DNA of 20,000 nt from an uncultured virus (IMG/VR IMGVR_UViG_3300031612_000005) (lineage: Duplodnaviria; Heunggongvirae; Uroviricota; Caudoviricetes): IMG/VR virus record IMGVR_UViG_3300031612_000005. The stretch is one strand, 5' to 3'. The stretch's first letter is position 1. Each line of letters opens with the position of its first letter. The translations under genes and the position numbers were made by a program. The notes beneath the pieces are model-generated. The model searched no databases, was not told the DNA's origin, and saw only the letters and a list, made by a program, of their open reading frames with translations. Below, piece after piece: positions 5,096 through 19,712 of the stretch.

Positions 5096-5407
5096 TTAAT
5101 AATCATTGAAGTCGGGATAACCACCATCATCGGAATAATACGGTTGGTTGAAATTAGGATCATCTTCGCCCGTAACTTCTGTAATCTCTGGGATAAAATG
5201 CATTAATGTATTCTCAATACCCATCTTCAACGTTGCTGCACTACTCGCACATCCACTACAACTACCACTTAGTTGGGTACTCAATATACCAGTGTTCATA
5301 TCAAATCCTAGTACATTCACCTTACCACCATGTGCGGCAACATTAGGTGTCACATACTTTGTCATTACTTCTTCAATATTTGTTAAAATCTCTTCTTTAG
5401 TTCTCAT
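5096..5407 (-). CDS. Nfu/NifU C-terminal-type Fe-S cluster carrier
   Basis: P.VAAHGG.V, LSGSCSGCASSAATLKMGIE (CxxC) motif of the NifU/Nfu domain. Confidence 0.9.
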   Translation of the reverse strand: MRTKEEILTNIEEVMTKYVTPNVAAHGGKVNVLGFDMNTGILSTQLSGSCSGCASSAATLKMGIENTLMHFIPEITEVTGEDDPNFNQPYYSDDGGYPDFNDY

Positions 5408-6322: not shown

Positions 6323-7261
6323 ATGAAAATAACAATATGCATATCTGGCGAGACCCGCGACTGGAACAACTACCCATCTAAAAATTTAGGATACTTTATT
6401 ACACGCTTAAAAGATTTTGGACATCAAGTGAAAGTAGTAGGACATACGTGGTCACATTGCGAAGTACCTTTACAACACCACGTGACGTTTGATAAACTTG
6501 TAATCGATGATCAGGCAATGATAGAAGAATGGGTCAAGGAAGATTGGATGCACCGACTTTCTATTAGTGATTTGGTTGCTGAAAGATTCGACTACCATGG
6601 ACGGGAAAGTCATGAGTTTAACACATTTGAATATGACAACCTATCTAAGGATGATCAATACGAACTCGCATATGGATGTCGTCATGCATATGGACAACAT
6701 ATTTCCGGATATAAATCTTTTCAATTGGCAGACAATGATGCTCACCTGTATATCAGATGGAGATGGGATATTATCTTTAATAAACTTCAAATAGGTGTAA
6801 TAGAAGATGAATACAAAGATAATATAGATTATTGGATGCACTATTTAAACGACCTATTCGAACAATGTGCAATGTTAACGGGATCATCAAGCGACGGAAT
6901 CGATGTGCATTTCGGCGGATCTACTATTGTTCATGCAGTGAATAGTGTATGCGTCGATGATACATTCTTTGCATTCACCTCACGCGCAAAAGAGCGTATA
7001 GATCTTTTAGATATATTTGATGCAATACATGAATACTCTAACGTAAACGACAATGTGCTTAACAGAGAAGTATATCATACATTGTGGACATATATAATGA
7101 CCCAATATCCTGAACTAGACGGATCATGTAGTCTACCAGCATGTGTACGTGCGACATATAGACCAGCACGTTTTCAGTTGAAAATAGATGAAGCAAATCG
7201 CAATCAAATGAAAATAGACGAATTACACGAAGAAGCATTGCTAATAGATGCAAAAATGTAA
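6323..7261 (+). CDS. Putative glycosyltransferase-like protein, paralog 1
   Basis: MKI.ICISG.TR, VVGHTW, Y.RWRWD, VDD.FF motifs shared with the downstream paralogs. Confidence 0.6.
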   Translation: MKITICISGETRDWNNYPSKNLGYFITRLKDFGHQVKVVGHTWSHCEVPLQHHVTFDKLVIDDQAMIEEWVKEDWMHRLSISDLVAERFDYHGRESHEFNTFEYDNLSKDDQYELAYGCRHAYGQHISGYKSFQLADNDAHLYIRWRWDIIFNKLQIGVIEDEYKDNIDYWMHYLNDLFEQCAMLTGSSSDGIDVHFGGSTIVHAVNSVCVDDTFFAFTSRAKERIDLLDIFDAIHEYSNVNDNVLNREVYHTLWTYIMTQYPELDGSCSLPACVRATYRPARFQLKIDEANRNQMKIDELHEEALLIDAKM

Positions 7262-8151
7262 TGAAAATATCCATCTGCGTATCAGGTCAGACTAGATCTT
7301 GGAATGATCATCCATCTAATAATTTACAGTATTTCATTTCCGTGTTAGAACAAATGGGACATACTGTAAATGTAGTAGGCCATACTTGGGATAATTGCGA
7401 TACACCAACACAAGATCTTGTACAATTTAAAAATATAGAATTAAATAACTCGTCGATGATTGATGATTGGATTAAACAAGATTGGCATAACCGTGTCATA
7501 ATCGATAATGATCTATGCGATTATTTTGAGTATGCACCACAAAATAATAATAATGATGATACAGATTTCCCACCACGAGATGATATGGCTTATGATCGTA
7601 TACCAGAATACATACGAAACGATATGCTGGAATGGTCACGCAATGAATACGCACAACACATTTCTGGATGGAAATCATTCCAACTAGCCGACAGTGACTC
7701 AGATATATATTTACGATGGCGATGGGATCTTATCTTTAATACACTCAATCGGTTCGTGGACGAAGACGATTACAAAAATAATATAAATTACTGGACTGAT
7801 CACCTAAATGATTTGTTTACATACGCATCTAATCACATGACAGCCGATTTCTATTTTTGCGGGTCTTCAGTTTTATTGACTGATGGAGAAGCAATTGTAG
7901 ACGATCAATACTTTATATTCACAAATAAAGCAAAGCAAAAAATAGATAATATCGATATATTTGAAGCCATAGATGCATATGCTGTAATTAATGACAATTC
8001 TATGACTCGAACAGCAGAACAACATTTATGGAGATTTATTAATATTGGATTAACCGAACTATCAGGACTTAACATGCTTCCACCTATTGCACGTACCACA
8101 TACAGTCCTCATAGAGGCAACCGACCACAACGTAAATACGCCAAGGAATAA
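7261..8151 (+). CDS. Putative glycosyltransferase-like protein, paralog 2
   Basis: Same motifs; TAATG stop-start overlap with paralog 1. Confidence 0.6.
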   Translation: MKISICVSGQTRSWNDHPSNNLQYFISVLEQMGHTVNVVGHTWDNCDTPTQDLVQFKNIELNNSSMIDDWIKQDWHNRVIIDNDLCDYFEYAPQNNNNDDTDFPPRDDMAYDRIPEYIRNDMLEWSRNEYAQHISGWKSFQLADSDSDIYLRWRWDLIFNTLNRFVDEDDYKNNINYWTDHLNDLFTYASNHMTADFYFCGSSVLLTDGEAIVDDQYFIFTNKAKQKIDNIDIFEAIDAYAVINDNSMTRTAEQHLWRFINIGLTELSGLNMLPPIARTTYSPHRGNRPQRKYAKE

Positions 8152-8155
8152 TTAA

Positions 8156-9049
8156 ATGAAAATCACAATATGCGTCTCAGGACAAACTAGATCGTGGGAT
8201 GGATACCCATCTAAAAATTTAGGGTATTTTGTTTCACAACTAGAACAACTAGGACATACAGTGGACGTGGTTGCACACACATGGTCATACCGCAATGAAC
8301 CTTTTCAATACCCTTCACAGGATATAGTTCAGTTTAAAAAACTAGTAGTAGATGACCAAGTCGTCATAGAAGATTGGGTAAAACAAGACTGGAATAAACG
8401 CATCGTAATCGATAATGAGATGACACAATTCTTTGATTATTCAATGGAAGATCAAGAAAAATCAACCAAAAAATTAGAATACAATAACTTATCAAAAGAT
8501 CAAATAAACGACATGCTAGCGTATACTCGCAGCCAAATAGGACAACATATTTCTGGTTGGAAATCATTCCAATTAGCAGATGATGACTCTGATATATATC
8601 TACGGTGGCGGTGGGATCTTATCTTTAGCACAGTACATGCTGGAGTAGTCGAAGAGGATTATAAGAATAACATAGATTATTGGATTGCATATTTAAATGA
8701 TTTGTTTGAATACGCAACCAAAATAAATACTGGATTCCATTTCTGCGGAGAACAGATACATCTAGAATCATCATCAGCAGTGATCGTCGATGATCAATAC
8801 TTTATATTCACAAATAATGCAAAACAAAAAATAGATAATATCAATATATTCAATGCAATCGATACATATGCACGTGATAACGAATACGATTGCAAACGTG
8901 GCGGATATCACTTCCTATGGACATATATAAATATAAACATGACTAGAGAAATAGGATCATCCCTATTCCCAAATATCGCTCGTGCTACTTACAATGACGT
9001 TAGATACCTTAGAGAAATAGAAACATCTAGATCACATTTCAGGAAGTAA
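8156..9049 (+). CDS. Putative glycosyltransferase-like protein, paralog 3
   Basis: SGQTR, HTW, GQHISGWKSFQLAD, DIYLRWRWDL. Confidence 0.6.
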   Translation: MKITICVSGQTRSWDGYPSKNLGYFVSQLEQLGHTVDVVAHTWSYRNEPFQYPSQDIVQFKKLVVDDQVVIEDWVKQDWNKRIVIDNEMTQFFDYSMEDQEKSTKKLEYNNLSKDQINDMLAYTRSQIGQHISGWKSFQLADDDSDIYLRWRWDLIFSTVHAGVVEEDYKNNIDYWIAYLNDLFEYATKINTGFHFCGEQIHLESSSAVIVDDQYFIFTNNAKQKIDNINIFNAIDTYARDNEYDCKRGGYHFLWTYININMTREIGSSLFPNIARATYNDVRYLREIETSRSHFRK

Positions 9050-9056
9050 AAATATT

Positions 9057-9938
9057 ATGAAAATAGCAATATGCATATCCGGACAGACGCGTGATTGGCA
9101 CGACTATCCATCAAAAAACTTAGCATACTTTATATCTACTTTAGAAGCAGCAGGGCATGAGGTAGATGTCGTTGGCCATACATGGAGTCATTGTATACCG
9201 CCATCCGAAGAACATGTGAAATTTAAAAAATTAATAATAGAAGATCAAGTAATAATAGATGATTGGGTTAAGAAAGATTGGATTAATCGCATAACACTTA
9301 ATGATGAACTATGTGATCTGTTTAATTATGATCCTAGCGATCAAGACGGGTTTGATATGACTACATTAGAATATGATAACCTTTCTGATGATCATATCAA
9401 TAAAATATTACAAAATTGTCGCGCTGGCTATGGACAACATGTATCTGGTTGGAAATCATTCCAACTAGCAGATGACGGATATGATATATATCTGCGATGG
9501 AGATGGGATCTTGTGTTCACTAAAGATAACTCCAACACCAGTGATGATGAATATAATCTTGTAATAGATTATTGGGCACCATATTTAATAGATATAATTA
9601 CATCTTTTCATTCAGTATCGTTTTCATCTGCTGGTAATCTTAATATTTTATTCGGCAATAATACTATAATTTACCATGCATATAAGGCATGCGTCGATGA
9701 TATATTCTTCGGCTTCTCATCATTGGCAAAAGAAAAAATAAATGCTGTCGATATATTTGACGCAATAGATTTATGCTTCCATCCGATGATCGGCGATAAT
9801 ATAAAATGTTTACAGATGAATAGAGCATTATATCATACTTTCTGGACATGGTGCATGACCGATCTTATTAAAATGGAAGGTGTATGCAAACTACCTGGAT
9901 GTGTTTCTATGACTTATTTGGAAAGTCGATTTCTATAA
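9057..9938 (+). CDS. Putative glycosyltransferase-like protein, paralog 4
   Basis: Same motifs; 6-nt convergent overlap with the 9933 gene. Confidence 0.6.
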   Translation: MKIAICISGQTRDWHDYPSKNLAYFISTLEAAGHEVDVVGHTWSHCIPPSEEHVKFKKLIIEDQVIIDDWVKKDWINRITLNDELCDLFNYDPSDQDGFDMTTLEYDNLSDDHINKILQNCRAGYGQHVSGWKSFQLADDGYDIYLRWRWDLVFTKDNSNTSDDEYNLVIDYWAPYLIDIITSFHSVSFSSAGNLNILFGNNTIIYHAYKACVDDIFFGFSSLAKEKINAVDIFDAIDLCFHPMIGDNIKCLQMNRALYHTFWTWCMTDLIKMEGVCKLPGCVSMTYLESRFL

Positions 9939-10437: not shown

Positions 10438-10752
10438 TTATCTATCATACTGTAACCTCAACATCATCTTAACCTCATCACTCGTTGGGGATACCTCCAA
10501 AAATTCTTTAAAACTTAAATCCTCACCATTAAGACACCAACTGTGAGATCTACTAGATCTACTATCAAGAACATCTGACTCATTGGTAATAGCAGGACCA
10601 TCTTCACGATGTATTTCACCTGCTTCATTATACCAAAAATATTCACCATCATCATGTAAATAACTACCATCATCTTGCAATTCCATATTGAACGAATCCT
10701 CATGATACGCAAATTCACTACTATAACAATTTGTATCGTAATAATCAACCAT
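10438..10752 (-). CDS. HREDGPA-motif protein, array copy 6
   Basis: WYNEAGEIHREDGPA...W.LNG...KMMLRLQY. Confidence 0.85.
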   Translation of the reverse strand: MVDYYDTNCYSSEFAYHEDSFNMELQDDGSYLHDDGEYFWYNEAGEIHREDGPAITNESDVLDSRSSRSHSWCLNGEDLSFKEFLEVSPTSDEVKMMLRLQYDR

Positions 10753-11062
10753 ACTGTAACCTCAACAACATCTTCTCTTCATCTGTCTTATTCAATGTAT
10801 TACACCATTCATTAAATGTATAATCAAAACCATTTAAATACCAATACAATCCACCCAACCTATATATAATAGACGGACCATCTTCTCTATGTACTTGTCC
10901 CTCCTCATTATACCAATACACATCGCGATCACTATGCAAGTATGAGCCATCACTTTGACGACATGCATCATACGCATTGATATGACGATCCCTATCACTC
11001 ATGGACATCTTCATATCACTCAGTGCTATCCTTTGCATTATCTCGCCATAACTCTCACGCAT
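10745..11062 (-). CDS. HREDGPA-motif protein, array copy 5
   Basis: WYNEEGQVHREDGPS...WYLNG...KMLLRLQYG. Confidence 0.85.
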   Translation of the reverse strand: MRESYGEIMQRIALSDMKMSMSDRDRHINAYDACRQSDGSYLHSDRDVYWYNEEGQVHREDGPSIIYRLGGLYWYLNGFDYTFNEWCNTLNKTDEEKMLLRLQYG

Positions 11063-11336
11063 ACTGCAACCTCAACATCATCTTTGTCTCTTCATCAACC
11101 GCAGTATCAATCAACCACTCTTCAAATGTACCATACTCAATACCATCTAAATACCATCCATCACCCTCTATATGATGCAATATAGCAGGACCAAATTCAC
11201 AATGTACCCGACCCAAATGATCGTAACGAAACACATCACCATCATCATGCAACCACGTACCATCACTCTGCAACGCAGCACTATAATTCTTTATATGATC
11301 GTACCTCGCATTAAAGTTATTAACAAAATCATCCAT
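11055..11336 (-). CDS. HREDGPA-motif protein, array copy 4
   Basis: GRVHCEFGPA...WYLDG...KMMLRLQYA. Confidence 0.85.
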   Translation of the reverse strand: MDDFVNNFNARYDHIKNYSAALQSDGTWLHDDGDVFRYDHLGRVHCEFGPAILHHIEGDGWYLDGIEYGTFEEWLIDTAVDEETKMMLRLQYA

Positions 11337-11658
11337 ACTGCAACCTATACATCATCTTACGTTCATCACTAATCTTAACATTAATCAACCACTCTTCAAA
11401 TGAACGACAATGACTATCATTCAAATACCACCATACTTCTACTACACCATATTTGTTCGGTGGCGATGTTATAGCAGGACCATCTTCTCTGTGTAGACCA
11501 CCAAGATCATTATACCAATATACATGTCCGTGATCATGCAACCATGAACCATCTTCTAATTGTGTCGCGTTCCAATCTTTTATATGATCTTCCAATCTGG
11601 TACTACTGCCCGTATATGGCTCCCACAAAGAACTAACTCTGATGCTGATGCTACCCAT
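11329..11658 (-). CDS. HREDGPA-motif protein, array copy 3
   Basis: WYNDLGGLHREDGPA...WYLND...KMMYRLQYG. Confidence 0.85.
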   Translation of the reverse strand: MGSISIRVSSLWEPYTGSSTRLEDHIKDWNATQLEDGSWLHDHGHVYWYNDLGGLHREDGPAITSPPNKYGVVEVWWYLNDSHCRSFEEWLINVKISDERKMMYRLQYG

Positions 11659-11941
11659 ACTGTAACCTCAACATCATCTTACGTTCATCACTACAATTAG
11701 TGAATCTACACCAATCGTCAAATGAATACTTATTATTACCCAAATGCCACTGTACATAACCACCATCCGTGTCACACCTTATCACAGCAGGTCCATCTTC
11801 TCTATGTATATTACCATCTTTATACCAATACACATCACCATCATTATGCAAATACGAACCATCACTCTGCAACTCAGCCTTATAATCTTCTATATGATGT
11901 GACAACTTAGTCCTCTCGCAATACTCATAACGATCACCCAT
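11651..11941 (-). CDS. HREDGPA-motif protein, array copy 2
   Basis: WYKDGNIHREDGPA...KMMLRLQYG. Confidence 0.85.
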   Translation of the reverse strand: MGDRYEYCERTKLSHHIEDYKAELQSDGSYLHNDGDVYWYKDGNIHREDGPAVIRCDTDGGYVQWHLGNNKYSFDDWCRFTNCSDERKMMLRLQYG

Positions 11942-12206
11942 ACTGTAACCTCAACATCATCTTATACTCTTCACTTATTCCTACAATTTTACACCACTGA
12001 TTAAATGGATAATTTACACCATTGAAAAACCACTCAACACTAGTGTCTACAAATATACTAGCAGGACCATCTTCACGATGCCATTGACCTTTTTCATTAA
12101 ACCAACTAATCGCACCAAATTCATCTACATAAGTTCCATCACTCTGCTTTATCGCACCATAACGCTCAATCAATTCAGCCCTCATACTTCCAATAAAGAC
12201 AGCCAT
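11934..12206 (-). CDS. HREDGPA-motif protein, array copy 1
   Basis: WFNEKGQWHREDGPA...KMMLRLQYG. Start reassigned to the ATG at 12206 after a GGGAGA SD (ORF track: 12227). Confidence 0.8.
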   Translation of the reverse strand: MAVFIGSMRAELIERYGAIKQSDGTYVDEFGAISWFNEKGQWHREDGPASIFVDTSVEWFFNGVNYPFNQWCKIVGISEEYKMMLRLQYG

Positions 12207-12282
12207 CACCAATCTCCCATAACACAAACCAACGAATTTTTTTTAACATTTAACACAATAAGACATCTTACTCAATAATACC

Positions 12283-12450
12283 TTATTCATCAGAATTTTC
12301 CAACCTCTTCAACCTTAACAAATACAATCCAAACAATAGAATCACTAGAATATAAACTACTCCAAATACCTCAGGACCAAATCCTACCGAAAATACATAT
12401 AGTAACACACCTATAAAACTGAACAACATACCAATCAATAATACCTTCAT
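12283..12450 (-). CDS. Small two-helix membrane protein
   Basis: Two hydrophobic stretches and a charged tail. Start at MKVLL fits the GGAAGAG SD after the early promoter (ORF track: 12468). Confidence 0.65.
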   Translation of the reverse strand: MKVLLIGMLFSFIGVLLYVFSVGFGPEVFGVVYILVILLFGLYLLRLKRLENSDE

Positions 12451-12482
12451 AATCTCTTCCCATTTCATTAACTCATATAACT

Positions 12483-12511
12483 AGTATACAGTAAGGACTC
12501 TCACTTGTCAA
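12483..12511 (-). promoter_or_regulatory. Early promoter driving the HREDGPA array
   Basis: TTGACA AGTGAGAGTCCTTACTG TATACT (17-bp spacer). Confidence 0.75.
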
Positions 12512-12857
12512 TAACTTAATTAAATTAATTAAATATAATACAAATACATCACCAAAATTTTTACCCTCTTTTATCATATTTCTTAACACGCATAACCATA
12601 ACAACTACATAAACAACTACTCTCTCTATAACATACTCACACTAAACTATAACTATACTCTCCCCTACAGAAACTATAACCTATACACACTAGGAACACT
12701 CTATACTACACTAGACTCTACTCTCGTAACACACACCCATACACGCTCTCATATCATACCACACAGCGTTAGGCAGTGTATCACTATCATTCTACCATCG
12801 TTGGGAGACTGTTGCGGCTTAATTATTAATTAATTGTATATACAAAATAAGGCTCAA

Positions 12858-12996: not shown

Positions 12997-13086
12997 CTGT
13001 GTGACTAAAAATATAAAGGCTATGGTAAAACCCTACTATACAGCCCATTATGGTATCCTACTATAATCCTACAGTGAGGCGTAGAC

Positions 13087-13511
13087 ATTGGAGTTACACT
13101 AGGGGAGATATGACTTGTATAGTATGTTACACTACTCCTACAGTTGGTGTCCCATGTATAGTGCCTTACTGTGTATATTGTGTATTATATTGGAGTTCTA
13201 CTAGGGGAGATATGACTTATTAAGGTGTGATATACTATTGTATATATTGCTGGGGTTATGATATACTATTGTATATATTGTGGAGTTCTACTAGGGGAGA
13301 ATGTAGTTATAGTGTATATGATTGGAGTTCTACTAGGGGAGATATGACTTATAGTATGTATTACTATGTCCGTCTATTGTTGTGGGGTTATGGTAGGGGA
13401 GAATGTAGTTATTGTTGGAGTTGTACTAGGGGATGATTGACTTATTGTTATGTGTATCGTTACTTGGTATATGATTGGAGTTCTACTAGGGGAGATATGA
13501 CTTATTAAGGT
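13087..13511 (+). repeat. Seven irregularly spaced ~30-bp repeats (TTGGAGTTCTACTAGGGGAGATATGACTTAT and variants)
   Basis: Cores start at about 13089, 13191, 13281, 13323, 13383 (degenerate), 13416 and 13476. There is also a 22-bp duplication TGATATACTATTGTATATATTG at 13228 and 13259. Confidence 0.9.
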
Positions 13512-13543
13512 ATGATGCCTTGTTATATATTATTGTTATATAT

Positions 13544-16359: not shown

Positions 16360-17232
16360 TTAATTATCTTCACTGAACAGATCACTGGGTAGTTCAGCCT
16401 TCTTCTTCGCTCTATCACGCTTCCAACCCTCACGCATCTTAACACGCTTCGCTAACTCTACAGGATCAGGTGACACCACAGTGGGATCATCTTTACTCTC
16501 TACATTAGCCAACGTTGGTAGGAAGGTATCGTATGCGTTGGTGTTCTGTTCAAAGCCTACGAACTCTCTACCGTAACGCAATGCTGTCCTAGCGGTAGTG
16601 AAACCACCACAGAACGGGTCCATCACTATGTCGCCTCTATTGGAACTATACATGATGAACTTTTCAATGAAGTCTTCACTCAACTGATTCTTATTCTTTA
16701 TTTGTCCCGGCTTATGACTACGAGGCATCTTCTGCACAGTTAGTCTATCATGGTAACTATCTTTACTATCAGCATAGTATGCGTTTGTATTGAATGTACG
16801 TTGTTGTTTCTTTGCTGGTGGTTTAGTCCAGAACAATACATGGTAATGACTACTGACATACTTCTTCGTAGTACTCACACCGAAAGAGTATTCCGCTATG
16901 ATATGGTTCACTTCGGTAAGATCAGTAGAATGTAATGCGTTGAGTATATGGTGTAGGTTAGTGTAACCGCTAACGATATACATTGAACCACCAGGACGTA
17001 ATACTCTAGCGCACTGAGTAATCCAATCTAATGAGAACTGTCCGTATGTCTCTAGTGGTACTTCCACATAGCCAGGAACTACATTGGATTCGTCACGGTT
17101 ATAGTGAGCATCTAGTTTGTCGCCCTCTATGCCGTATGGTGGATCTGTGAAGATAAGATCGACTGAGTTAGAGTCAACGTTGTCTCTCATACCTTCTATA
17201 CAGTTTTGGTTATATACGTTATACACGAGCAT
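16360..17232 (-). CDS. N6-adenine/N4-cytosine DNA methyltransferase (beta-class order)
   Basis: VDLIFTDPPY (motif IV) precedes DIVMDPFCGGFTT (motif I); RVLRPGGS. Confidence 0.92.
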   Translation of the reverse strand: MLVYNVYNQNCIEGMRDNVDSNSVDLIFTDPPYGIEGDKLDAHYNRDESNVVPGYVEVPLETYGQFSLDWITQCARVLRPGGSMYIVSGYTNLHHILNALHSTDLTEVNHIIAEYSFGVSTTKKYVSSHYHVLFWTKPPAKKQQRTFNTNAYYADSKDSYHDRLTVQKMPRSHKPGQIKNKNQLSEDFIEKFIMYSSNRGDIVMDPFCGGFTTARTALRYGREFVGFEQNTNAYDTFLPTLANVESKDDPTVVSPDPVELAKRVKMREGWKRDRAKKKAELPSDLFSEDN

Positions 17233-17788
17233 CCTCTATGATCTTTCGTTGTGCTTGGGCTTTGACTGCTTTATAGTCTAGGTTCATTGTATTGTTGTTA
17301 ACCACATTGGTAGGCTTCATTAAGAACGTTAGTGCCTCAAACGGTATGTGACTTTCTATGCCGTCTGGTACAGCGACTAGGAATGGTTTGACATCATCCC
17401 AACTGATGATAGCGATAGCGTCTTGTTGACCAATCATATAGAAGTCAGCGGGATGATCTATGTTAGTACCTTTAGATGAGCCTAGACTATTCTTTAGTTT
17501 AACTTTGACCATCTTCTTCTCGCGTTTCAATGGGGTGAACATACCATTGGTTACATACTTGAACTCTAGATCAACGTTGAGTTTGTTATCACGATGATCA
17601 CGTCCTACTTCGTCTACCCATGATAGTCTACCATTAGAGTATACGTCAATACATTGTTCAATGATGTCGCTCTTATCGAAGCGATCTTTGGGTGAGTTCA
17701 ACTGTGTACCTAACGCGGCTACTAGGTTGGTGTAGTCAACTAGATTGATCGCATTACGCAGGTCGTCTGCATACGTTGATGTGTTCAT
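17219..17788 (-). CDS. Putative type II restriction endonuclease (PD-(D/E)xK)
   Basis: GRD...DLEFK motif; overlaps the MTase start by 14 nt. Confidence 0.5.
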   Translation of the reverse strand: MNTSTYADDLRNAINLVDYTNLVAALGTQLNSPKDRFDKSDIIEQCIDVYSNGRLSWVDEVGRDHRDNKLNVDLEFKYVTNGMFTPLKREKKMVKVKLKNSLGSSKGTNIDHPADFYMIGQQDAIAIISWDDVKPFLVAVPDGIESHIPFEALTFLMKPTNVVNNNTMNLDYKAVKAQAQRKIIEDARV

Positions 17789-18661: not shown

Positions 18662-18877
18662 ATGTCTGAATTAATTTCTGATCTCATTGAGACTACCATC
18701 GACAACTACAACACAACAGTATCTGGAGACAATAAGTCTGGTGTATTCCTAGAAGATCTGTTCTTAGATTACTTTAATAATTTCCTTACAGTTGATAGAT
18801 TTGCAGAGTATTATGGACTAGACGCGAAGATAGCCAATGAAGTGATCTATCTTGGGAGAATGATTAACAATGCTTGA
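18662..18877 (+). CDS. Small phage hypothetical protein (DYFNNFLT..FAEYYG)
   Basis: GGAG SD, 71 aa, 8-nt overlap with the next gene. Confidence 0.7.
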   Translation: MSELISDLIETTIDNYNTTVSGDNKSGVFLEDLFLDYFNNFLTVDRFAEYYGLDAKIANEVIYLGRMINNA

Positions 18878-19712
18878 TACACCATTAAGAGTTGCAATAG
18901 TACTCACAGGAGAAACAAGATCTTGGGAGAATGATGCTAGTACTGCAACTCCGCCCATGTGCATTCCAGACGAATATACTAAATTTAATGATGAATGTAG
19001 TCGAGCAATGGATATTGATTACTATGGTATTACATGGGATCACTGTAAACTCTCAAAAAAATTAGATATGTTTAAGTCAGTCAAGAAACTTAATTTCGAA
19101 ACAGATTATAAAAATGAAACAATGACAGGTGTACTAAATAAAAATAGACAACGACTGATCATTGACACCATGAGCACAGATGATGTAGTGATGTATAATT
19201 ACTATGCCCAAGCGTACATGTGGTTTGAAGGAATAAAATTAGCAAAATCGTTAGGAGAGTACGATTGGATTATTAAGTTTAGGTGGGACATGGCTCCCAG
19301 ACTGGAGATGATTAGTAGTATATATTCGTTAAGCAATTGTGATAATGAGATGCCTACACTAGCAACATGTAATCCAGAAATTCACTACTCGTCACAGTTT
19401 CCGTTAGGAGACTTCAAGTGGAGCGATTATATATTTGCAGTTAATCGCAAATTGCAAGACTATATATACACCACACCAACTGAACAAATAATATCGAATA
19501 ATATAGAAACAAGTTTTTGCAATACGCCTAGCAATGACCTAAGCATTGGGTTCTTTAATTATGAGTTTCTGCCTACAGAGATTCTAAGAATAATACAGGC
19601 ATTTAGAAATTCAGATAGACAACTAGTAATGGACAAGAGTATATACGACACGTGGCATAGTATAACAGATGATATGAAAAATAAAAGAAGTGTAGGTAGA
19701 CCTCCCACTTAA
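18870..19712 (+). CDS. Putative glycosyltransferase-like protein, distant homolog of the 6323-9938 family
   Basis: VAIVLTGETRSW, GITWD, YDWIIKFRWD, SDYIFA motifs. Confidence 0.6.
   Translation: MLDTPLRVAIVLTGETRSWENDASTATPPMCIPDEYTKFNDECSRAMDIDYYGITWDHCKLSKKLDMFKSVKKLNFETDYKNETMTGVLNKNRQRLIIDTMSTDDVVMYNYYAQAYMWFEGIKLAKSLGEYDWIIKFRWDMAPRLEMISSIYSLSNCDNEMPTLATCNPEIHYSSQFPLGDFKWSDYIFAVNRKLQDYIYTTPTEQIISNNIETSFCNTPSNDLSIGFFNYEFLPTEILRIIQAFRNSDRQLVMDKSIYDTWHSITDDMKNKRSVGRPPT

Follow-up and report, generated by a model that had tools for sequence, protein, structure and literature searches.

In the T4-type phages RB49/phi1, PST and nt-1, unrelated ORFans within hyperplastic regions are surrounded by PeSL elements, which are intergenic promoter-terminator units according to the accessible parts of the papers describing them (PMC2839356; PMC4122927). 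The Ip loci of T-even phages, as portrayed in the accessible sections of PMC2839356 and PMC12373910, are variable arrays of small accessory genes with a shared N-terminal leader and early-promoter repeats. The same sections describe the Ip proteins as packaged and Ip1–3 as counter-defence proteins. On the level of translation, termination-reinitiation is described in the accessible text of PMC6728339 for overlapping gene pairs with a short overlap and a Shine-Dalgarno (SD) sequence inside the upstream gene. Among proteins, MORN repeats have a period of 23 residues (PMC5753266, accessible part).

Here we analysed an array of six small HREDGPA-family genes within a window of 20,000 nt, the whole stretch considered, from an uncultured virus of the Caudoviricetes (IMG/VR record IMGVR_UViG_3300031612_000005). 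A literature search that covered few subscription journals yielded no paper on the HREDGPA family or on an array design with a coding joint, and the accessible part of PMC7824862 does not mention the family.

The array and its relatives

For genome-wide counts the 149-kb record G002 was used, which is about 40% complete according to CheckV and whose corresponding locus (L001) is 99.98% identical to the window. G002 carries a RecA-family gene and a gp23-type capsid gene, and the nearest named relatives of this capsid gene, at 66–70%, are from phages of 285–470 kb such as Phosso, Vibrio 2.275.O and PA5oct. All runs (24/24) were marine or seawater metagenomes. The source is a large marine, gp23-type jumbo-like phage. 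A metagenome scan provided 33 loci, and 30 loci were analysed (L002 and L082–L111 without L100); L079–L081, whose array is identical to that of L002, and L100, the same contig as L003, whose two genes are also present in L099, were left out. These 30 loci, all short-read metagenome assemblies and not independent of each other, contain 158 family ORFs with a stop codon, 157 of them bearing the shared C-terminal tail, at 1–13 per contig. Grouping of 145 complete genes at 85% nucleotide identity resulted in 76 types, given below as T numbers. The features of the array, in window coordinates, are:

12483..12511 (−), sigma70-type promoter, putatively early, 11 of 12 consensus matches; one of the region's repeated promoter family
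12283..12468 (−), hydrophobic ORF of 61 aa heading the putative operon; outside the family, no Pfam match over the cut-off
11934..12206 (−), gene 1, 90 aa, type T13
11939..11963 (−), junction 1, tail codons of gene 1 with GAGGT plus the ATG of gene 2
11651..11941 (−), gene 2, 96 aa, type T11
11656..11680 (−), junction 2; a promoter module follows this gene 2 type here in L082 and L083
11329..11658 (−), gene 3, 109 aa, type T20
11334..11358 (−), junction 3, a variant (22/25) with TAGGT
11055..11336 (−), gene 4, 93 aa, type T23
11060..11084 (−), junction 4 (24/25)
10745..11062 (−), gene 5, 105 aa, type T38
10750..10774 (−), junction 5 (24/25)
10438..10752 (−), gene 6, 104 aa, type T06, the array's final gene in 4/4 loci with T06
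10446..10470 (−), junction 6, intact 25-mer with no family gene downstream

The six minus-strand ORFs are paralogs of 90–109 aa with 31–48% global identity (15 pairs), each overlapping the next by exactly 8 nt. A preliminary description of this DNA had reported a six-gene HREDGPA array with five such overlaps, which is borne out by the ORF coordinates. It had further described a 25-bp junction with an invariant C-terminal motif, every copy as ending in KMMLRLQY(G/A/D) and GAGGT as preceding the next ATG. These statements hold after minor correction: the terminus reads KMMYRLQYG in copy 3, KMLL in copy 5 and YDR in copy 6, copy 3 has TAGGT, and the junction is identical in three of the six copies, with 24 of 25 matching positions in two and 22 of 25 in one. 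The HREDGPA core is moderately conserved overall, as had been noted, with HCEFGPA in copy 4 and HREDGPS in copy 5, and the N-termini are unrelated, as claimed, over the first 10–25 residues, but a weak H-I-x-x-Y-x-A helix motif precedes QxDG in most copies. In copy 6, the embedded ATG opens a frame of 12 aa only.

With up to three mismatches allowed, the junction pattern occurs six times in G002, always inside the array, and not once in a reversed control; therefore, it is not due to chance. Pattern scans of viral contigs gave matches in this genome and in two other contigs only. Contigs from two runs that had not been marked as possible sources span junctions without differences (X20, 10607–11421; X21, 11530–12700). 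Related alleles of several genes in the array are matched by contigs from the RNA library X22, a match that is no demonstration of transcription.

The operon is probably driven by the promoter at 12483..12511 (−), and the 61-aa hydrophobic ORF precedes the array in L083 as well. The window is rich in near-perfect sigma70-type sites, and of the 18 perfect sites in G002, 10 are located in the window's last 16 kb. This richness of the region in sigma70-type promoters suggests that the array is expressed early. Between 5665 and 19716 there are eleven sigma70-type promoters, each preceding small genes, that belong to a single family and have in common an AT-rich leader and a 17-nt spacer, which is conserved and weakly palindromic; by its sequence, this part of the window is a PeSL-like hyperplastic region.

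The window has further features. Four tandem paralogs of about 300 aa beginning with MKI(T/S/A)IC(I/V)SG are located at 6323–9938 (+), and a fifth, more distant one at 18870–19712 (+); they have no Pfam match and one weak PHROG match, and such paralogs adjoin the array in L084, L086, L088, L105 and L109. The non-coding stretch 13086–13530 contains at least seven irregularly spaced copies of a repeat of about 36 nt with a constant core, at a GC-skew switch, with an imperfect inverted copy at 12643–12693; this cluster is a possible origin or packaging/terminal region. A tryptophan halogenase-family gene, a DUF6356 gene and a gene for an AMP-binding enzyme follow each other at 418–2498 (−), and a NifU-like gene lies at 5096–5407. 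At 16360–17788 (−), a DNA methyltransferase gene stands right behind a 189-aa gene without known family, possibly forming a restriction-modification pair.

Constraint and exchange at the joint

The 30 loci yielded 132 distinct junction contexts. The coupled partner is a family gene in 100 of them and another frame in 3; 10 lead into a promoter and 19 are uncoupled. Two of the three other frames are family genes cut at a contig end and one is an unrelated gene. Unrelated genes are almost never joined here (1/103 coupled neighbours), and capture of such genes by the joint was rejected on this count. The overlap measures 8 nt in 96 of the 103 coupled contexts.

The suspicion of the preliminary description that the C-terminal motif is constrained at the nucleic-acid level is supported by the synonymous divergence and by the contrast between coupled and uncoupled contexts. 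Across the 76 gene types, the synonymous difference is 0.21 in the junction versus 0.42 in the HxxxGPA core and 0.38 in the remainder, corresponding to 0.36, 0.81 and 0.83 as a share of saturation. In 129 distinct genes, the codon use of the tail differs from that of the gene bodies (Lys AAG 93% vs 52%, Leu TTG 92% vs 27%, Arg AGG 89% vs 17%, Gln CAG 92% vs 46%); because core codons are biased as well (Arg AGA 81%, Glu GAA 94%), shared ancestry contributes to this bias. GAGGT is retained in 86 of 103 coupled versus 8 of 19 uncoupled contexts, counts whose rows are not independent. Synonymous codon changes from the modal tail amount to 1.22 in uncoupled and 0.45 in coupled contexts, and non-synonymous changes to 0.56 and 0.48, respectively (18 vs 88 contexts).

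The peptide persists where the ribosome site is lost, hence the tail has a protein role, too. It is constrained twice, as DNA and as protein. Among database proteins, the tail was matched in 119 of 120, and in 118 of these 119 the last Tyr is followed by G, A, E, V or D, since codons beginning with G complete the embedded ATG. The AlphaFold2 model of gene 2 predicts the tail as a helix (residues 85–95, pLDDT about 90). No conserved hairpin or other fold of the DNA at the joint was found in the six junctions, and this candidate was rejected.

Copy number and order of the array had been expected to vary among relatives, and they do so in the 30 metagenomic loci; neither is the array fixed in relatives nor is the peptide kept with freely varying synonymous sites. 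Among the types seen at least twice, different downstream neighbours occur for 18 of 33 and different upstream neighbours for 14 of 25; one of these cases is a point change in an ATG without rearrangement. The gene order is T13-T11-T20-T23-T38-T06 in the window and T13-T25-T11-promoter-T51-T21-T20-T21 in L083, while the array of L084 ends with T74-T48-T06. These loci are versions of one locus, because the window shares its upstream flanking genes with L083 and L091 and a downstream flanking gene with L084, L086, L088, L105 and L109.

In paired alignments, identity reaches the ATG and then collapses. Recombination at the junction, as had been proposed, is supported by an enrichment of homology ends: 157 of 302 distinct but not independent ends lie within −45..+12 of the ATG, a zone comprising 20.7% of positions (genes not preselected), and the conserved core zone is not enriched (42/302 ends vs 14.6% expected). 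A stricter run agrees, with 45 of 169 right ends (null 7%) and 71 of 165 left ends (null 13%). The proposal holds for part of the events only, since 145 of the 302 ends are outside the junction zone and exchange must also occur inside genes. The right ends are sharp, with 72 of 147 in 0..+14, as unrelated N-termini would produce anyway, and the left ends are spread over −45..+14. Within types, pS is higher in the tail (0.155) than in the body (0.094; 29 types, 53 pairs). Between types, in contrast, the tail is the least variable part, and tail exchange would be expected to leave such a pattern. Within gene types nothing points to positive selection (body pN/pS 0.54), and no clean junction-to-junction deletion of the array was present in contigs of four runs. 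The hot spot at the joint may arise because crossovers are more frequent there or because the recombinants formed there survive better.

In 10 of the junction contexts, a TTGACA box follows right behind the tail and is overlapped by the stop codon, and the remaining 122 of 132 contexts are without a sigma70-type promoter. The next family gene begins 46–75 nt further on in 7 of these 10 added modules, and at the end of 8 of the 10 stands a non-coding copy of that half of the junction which carries the ribosome site. Type T01 is preceded by a promoter in L092, L103 and L107 and by gene T17 in L089. These T01 variants together with the ribosome-site-half copies identify the promoter module as a cassette that may be present or absent and whose two ends both resemble the joint. 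Its spacer is weakly palindromic (mean stem 4.0 vs 2.9 shuffled, n = 18).

Arrays of the family also exist in other lineages. At least two family ORFs were found in 42 of 76 more distant viral loci, often with a shared tail of their own that differs from the window's. L033 (1–6352) has sixteen consecutive HREDGPA-family genes with such a tail; counted by eye, 14 of the 16 copies have GAGGT in the tail and a following ATG that overlaps the stop codon or comes immediately after it, and the two copies without GAGGT lead into TTGACA. In several of its tails TTGACA overlaps the SD, as though the coding sequence had absorbed a −35 box. Designs related to that of L033 are present in L009, L007 and L121, and shared tails without an evident SD inside in L058, L066, L068 and L078. 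In L099 (1900–3761), the family array is split in two by a sugar-pathway block behind a junction-promoter, with KDO8P synthase-like, cytidylyltransferase-like and cupin-like genes as identified by eye.

The protein family

The six window proteins have no match in Pfam, PHROGs or, by sequence, the PDB; NCBIfam gave none over the cut-off for seven relatives, and tblastn with gene 2 against 50,697 phage records gave none either. A profile built from the six proteins matched 1,693 proteins, and a profile search returned 19,478 cluster representatives (E ≤ 0.001), many with 5–27 repeats. ESM Atlas provided unnamed viral clusters only, in addition to a lead to DUF6745. Long relatives show a period of 23 residues (421/997 spacings, 146 proteins), and on sequence grounds the family is a large unnamed 23-residue repeat family.

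The AlphaFold2 model of gene 2 (pLDDT 87) consists of a helix, beta hairpins and two C-terminal helices. No PDB fold matched it (best E 1.7, best Z 3.3). Among predicted viral structures, uncultured-phage proteins matched at E 8e-6, with weaker matches to proteins of Atu_ph07 and of giant viruses, two labelled MORN. The homodimer prediction, with a score of 0.00, speaks neither for nor against a dimer. The long relative P0176 is homologous to the window family (profile probability 98.8; 36% over 81 residues including the tail), and its fold was predicted with a pLDDT of 95. Morn1 and junctophilins make up its best 12 Foldseek rows (best E 1.8e-5, TM 0.27–0.35); by VIA-align, MORN4 (Z 6.0, rmsd 5.5, 107 aligned) is level with other beta-sheet proteins, which also have Z about 6 (at most 6.3). 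Neither Pfam MORN nor DUF6745 was over the cut-off in any of the six window proteins. Among 120 close homologs there was one match to MORN_2 (E 0.068) and eight to DUF6745, all far under the cut-off, and in long relatives the DUF6745 matches cover the HREDGPA stretch in 14 of 18.

The likeness to the MORN proteins Morn1, junctophilin and MORN4, namely the 23-residue period and a predicted single-layer beta-hairpin architecture, applies to the long relatives only. In contrast to MORN and DUF6745 (PF20530) proteins, the window proteins have one full motif with capping helices. At best, we infer from the models that the family works like MORN; by analogy, the MORN-peptide complexes 6jle and 7rxq among the structure matches suggest peptide binding. 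Of six distant homologs in Atu_ph07, three that were checked (CDS 51, 81 and 88 by our own count) are missing from its 131 virion proteins, and CDS 88 has no such tail; the absence from the virion list speaks weakly against packaging.

Interpretation of the joint

As far as PeSL elements are described in the accessible parts of the sources, the junction resembles them as a short repeat that ends in an SD and a start codon and as homology for the insertion, deletion and replacement of genes, since it bounds such changes between relatives. Both also come with sigma70-type promoters and without an identified dedicated recombinase. In contrast, the linker in the window lies inside coding sequence rather than between genes, has no promoter, which here is an optional plug-in module, and forms no stable stem-loop terminator in the six junctions. 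It joins paralogs of one operon that are presumably coupled, whereas PeSLs flank unrelated ORFans. The junction fails three defining PeSL features.

The Ip loci, again judged from the accessible sections, are similar in that gene number, order and identity vary at one locus and a terminal peptide is constant. However, Ip proteins share only the N-terminal leader, while the window proteins are homologous throughout, their constant part is C-terminal and their tail doubles as the initiation site of the next gene. From the termination-reinitiation pairs covered by the accessible text the array differs by an overlap of 8 nt instead of 1 or 4, and by one overlap design that recurs through an array of paralogs and marks a crossover hot spot.

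We consider it likely that the junction is an intragenic linker acting like a PeSL or the T4 Ip-locus repeat and used by ordinary homologous recombination. As sequence and conservation show, the last approximately eight codons of each gene encode the C-terminal helix and at the same time hold the SD and the ATG of the next gene; each overlap would allow reinitiation or SD-led initiation, with coupling as the presumed outcome. This double constraint would keep a stretch of 25–45 nt nearly alike in all paralogs, and general homologous recombination, presumably by a RecA-like protein, would place crossovers in the tail, the observed hot spot, more often than elsewhere, so that neither gene is disrupted and each stays in frame and keeps its ribosome site. 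Whole genes and promoter modules of 46–75 nt could be inserted, lost and reordered, with further homogenisation of the tails. A feedback would result, in which constraint preserves the homology and exchange homogenises the tail.

Alternatively, the tail could primarily serve as an address on the protein that one phage partner reads for docking or packaging, like the T4 internal-protein leader, with the DNA likeness and the shuffling as side effects. This would explain why the peptide outlasts the loss of the ribosome site, why truncated members lose much of the core and keep the tail and why other large phages have shared tails of their own. We nevertheless regard it as rather unlikely, as synonymous sites are held and relaxed only where no gene follows, the Gln before the Tyr is freely swapped for Arg, Cys or Lys with the spacing kept, promoter modules run into a non-coding copy of the ribosome-site half, and the Atu_ph07 homologs named above are not among the virion proteins.

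The sharp right-hand ends at the ATG would also fit a dedicated site-specific recombinase that acts on the junction in the manner of an integron or shufflon system, but unrelated N-termini alone give sharp right ends. Moreover, the left ends are spread, partner tails share 4–25 exact nt only, the six junctions have no conserved hairpin, and no tyrosine integrase (PF00589) was found in G002, a record of only some 40% completeness; we consider such an enzyme very improbable. That the different orders are assembly chimeras at a short repeat and the true array is stable is hardly credible, even though all data are short-read assemblies and the X16 Logan contigs break at junctions. Exact identity before the ATG is 4–25 nt in 27 pairs and below 21 nt in 24 of them, and both alternatives are found repeatedly in separate contigs (T00-T02 in three loci and T00-T04 in three, for example), for which reasons misassembly is an unlikely explanation. 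In addition, different gene types stand beside the same flanking gene, which single-genome chimerism cannot make.

With regard to function, the products of the array genes may be early miniature MORN-like beta-hairpin proteins, each offering a different surface to a host protein in takeover or counter-defence, an assignment that we make tentatively. Still more speculative, and in our view doubtful, is the generalisation that self-wiring gene libraries have arisen repeatedly in large phages, in which libraries a lineage-specific tail would be protein cap or docking address, ribosome site and recombination joint in one, and MORN-like binders and promoters would be exchanged across the population and tuned against host defences without a dedicated recombinase.

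As an example of modular phage evolution the array is well sampled; its linker is concealed within coding sequence, and translatable genes result from every crossover at a junction. Overlapping duties at the DNA level explain why a protein motif looks invariant, a trap for motif-based annotation. The array also draws attention to a repeat family that is very large and as yet unnamed, with an expansion in large phages and with giant-virus relatives.
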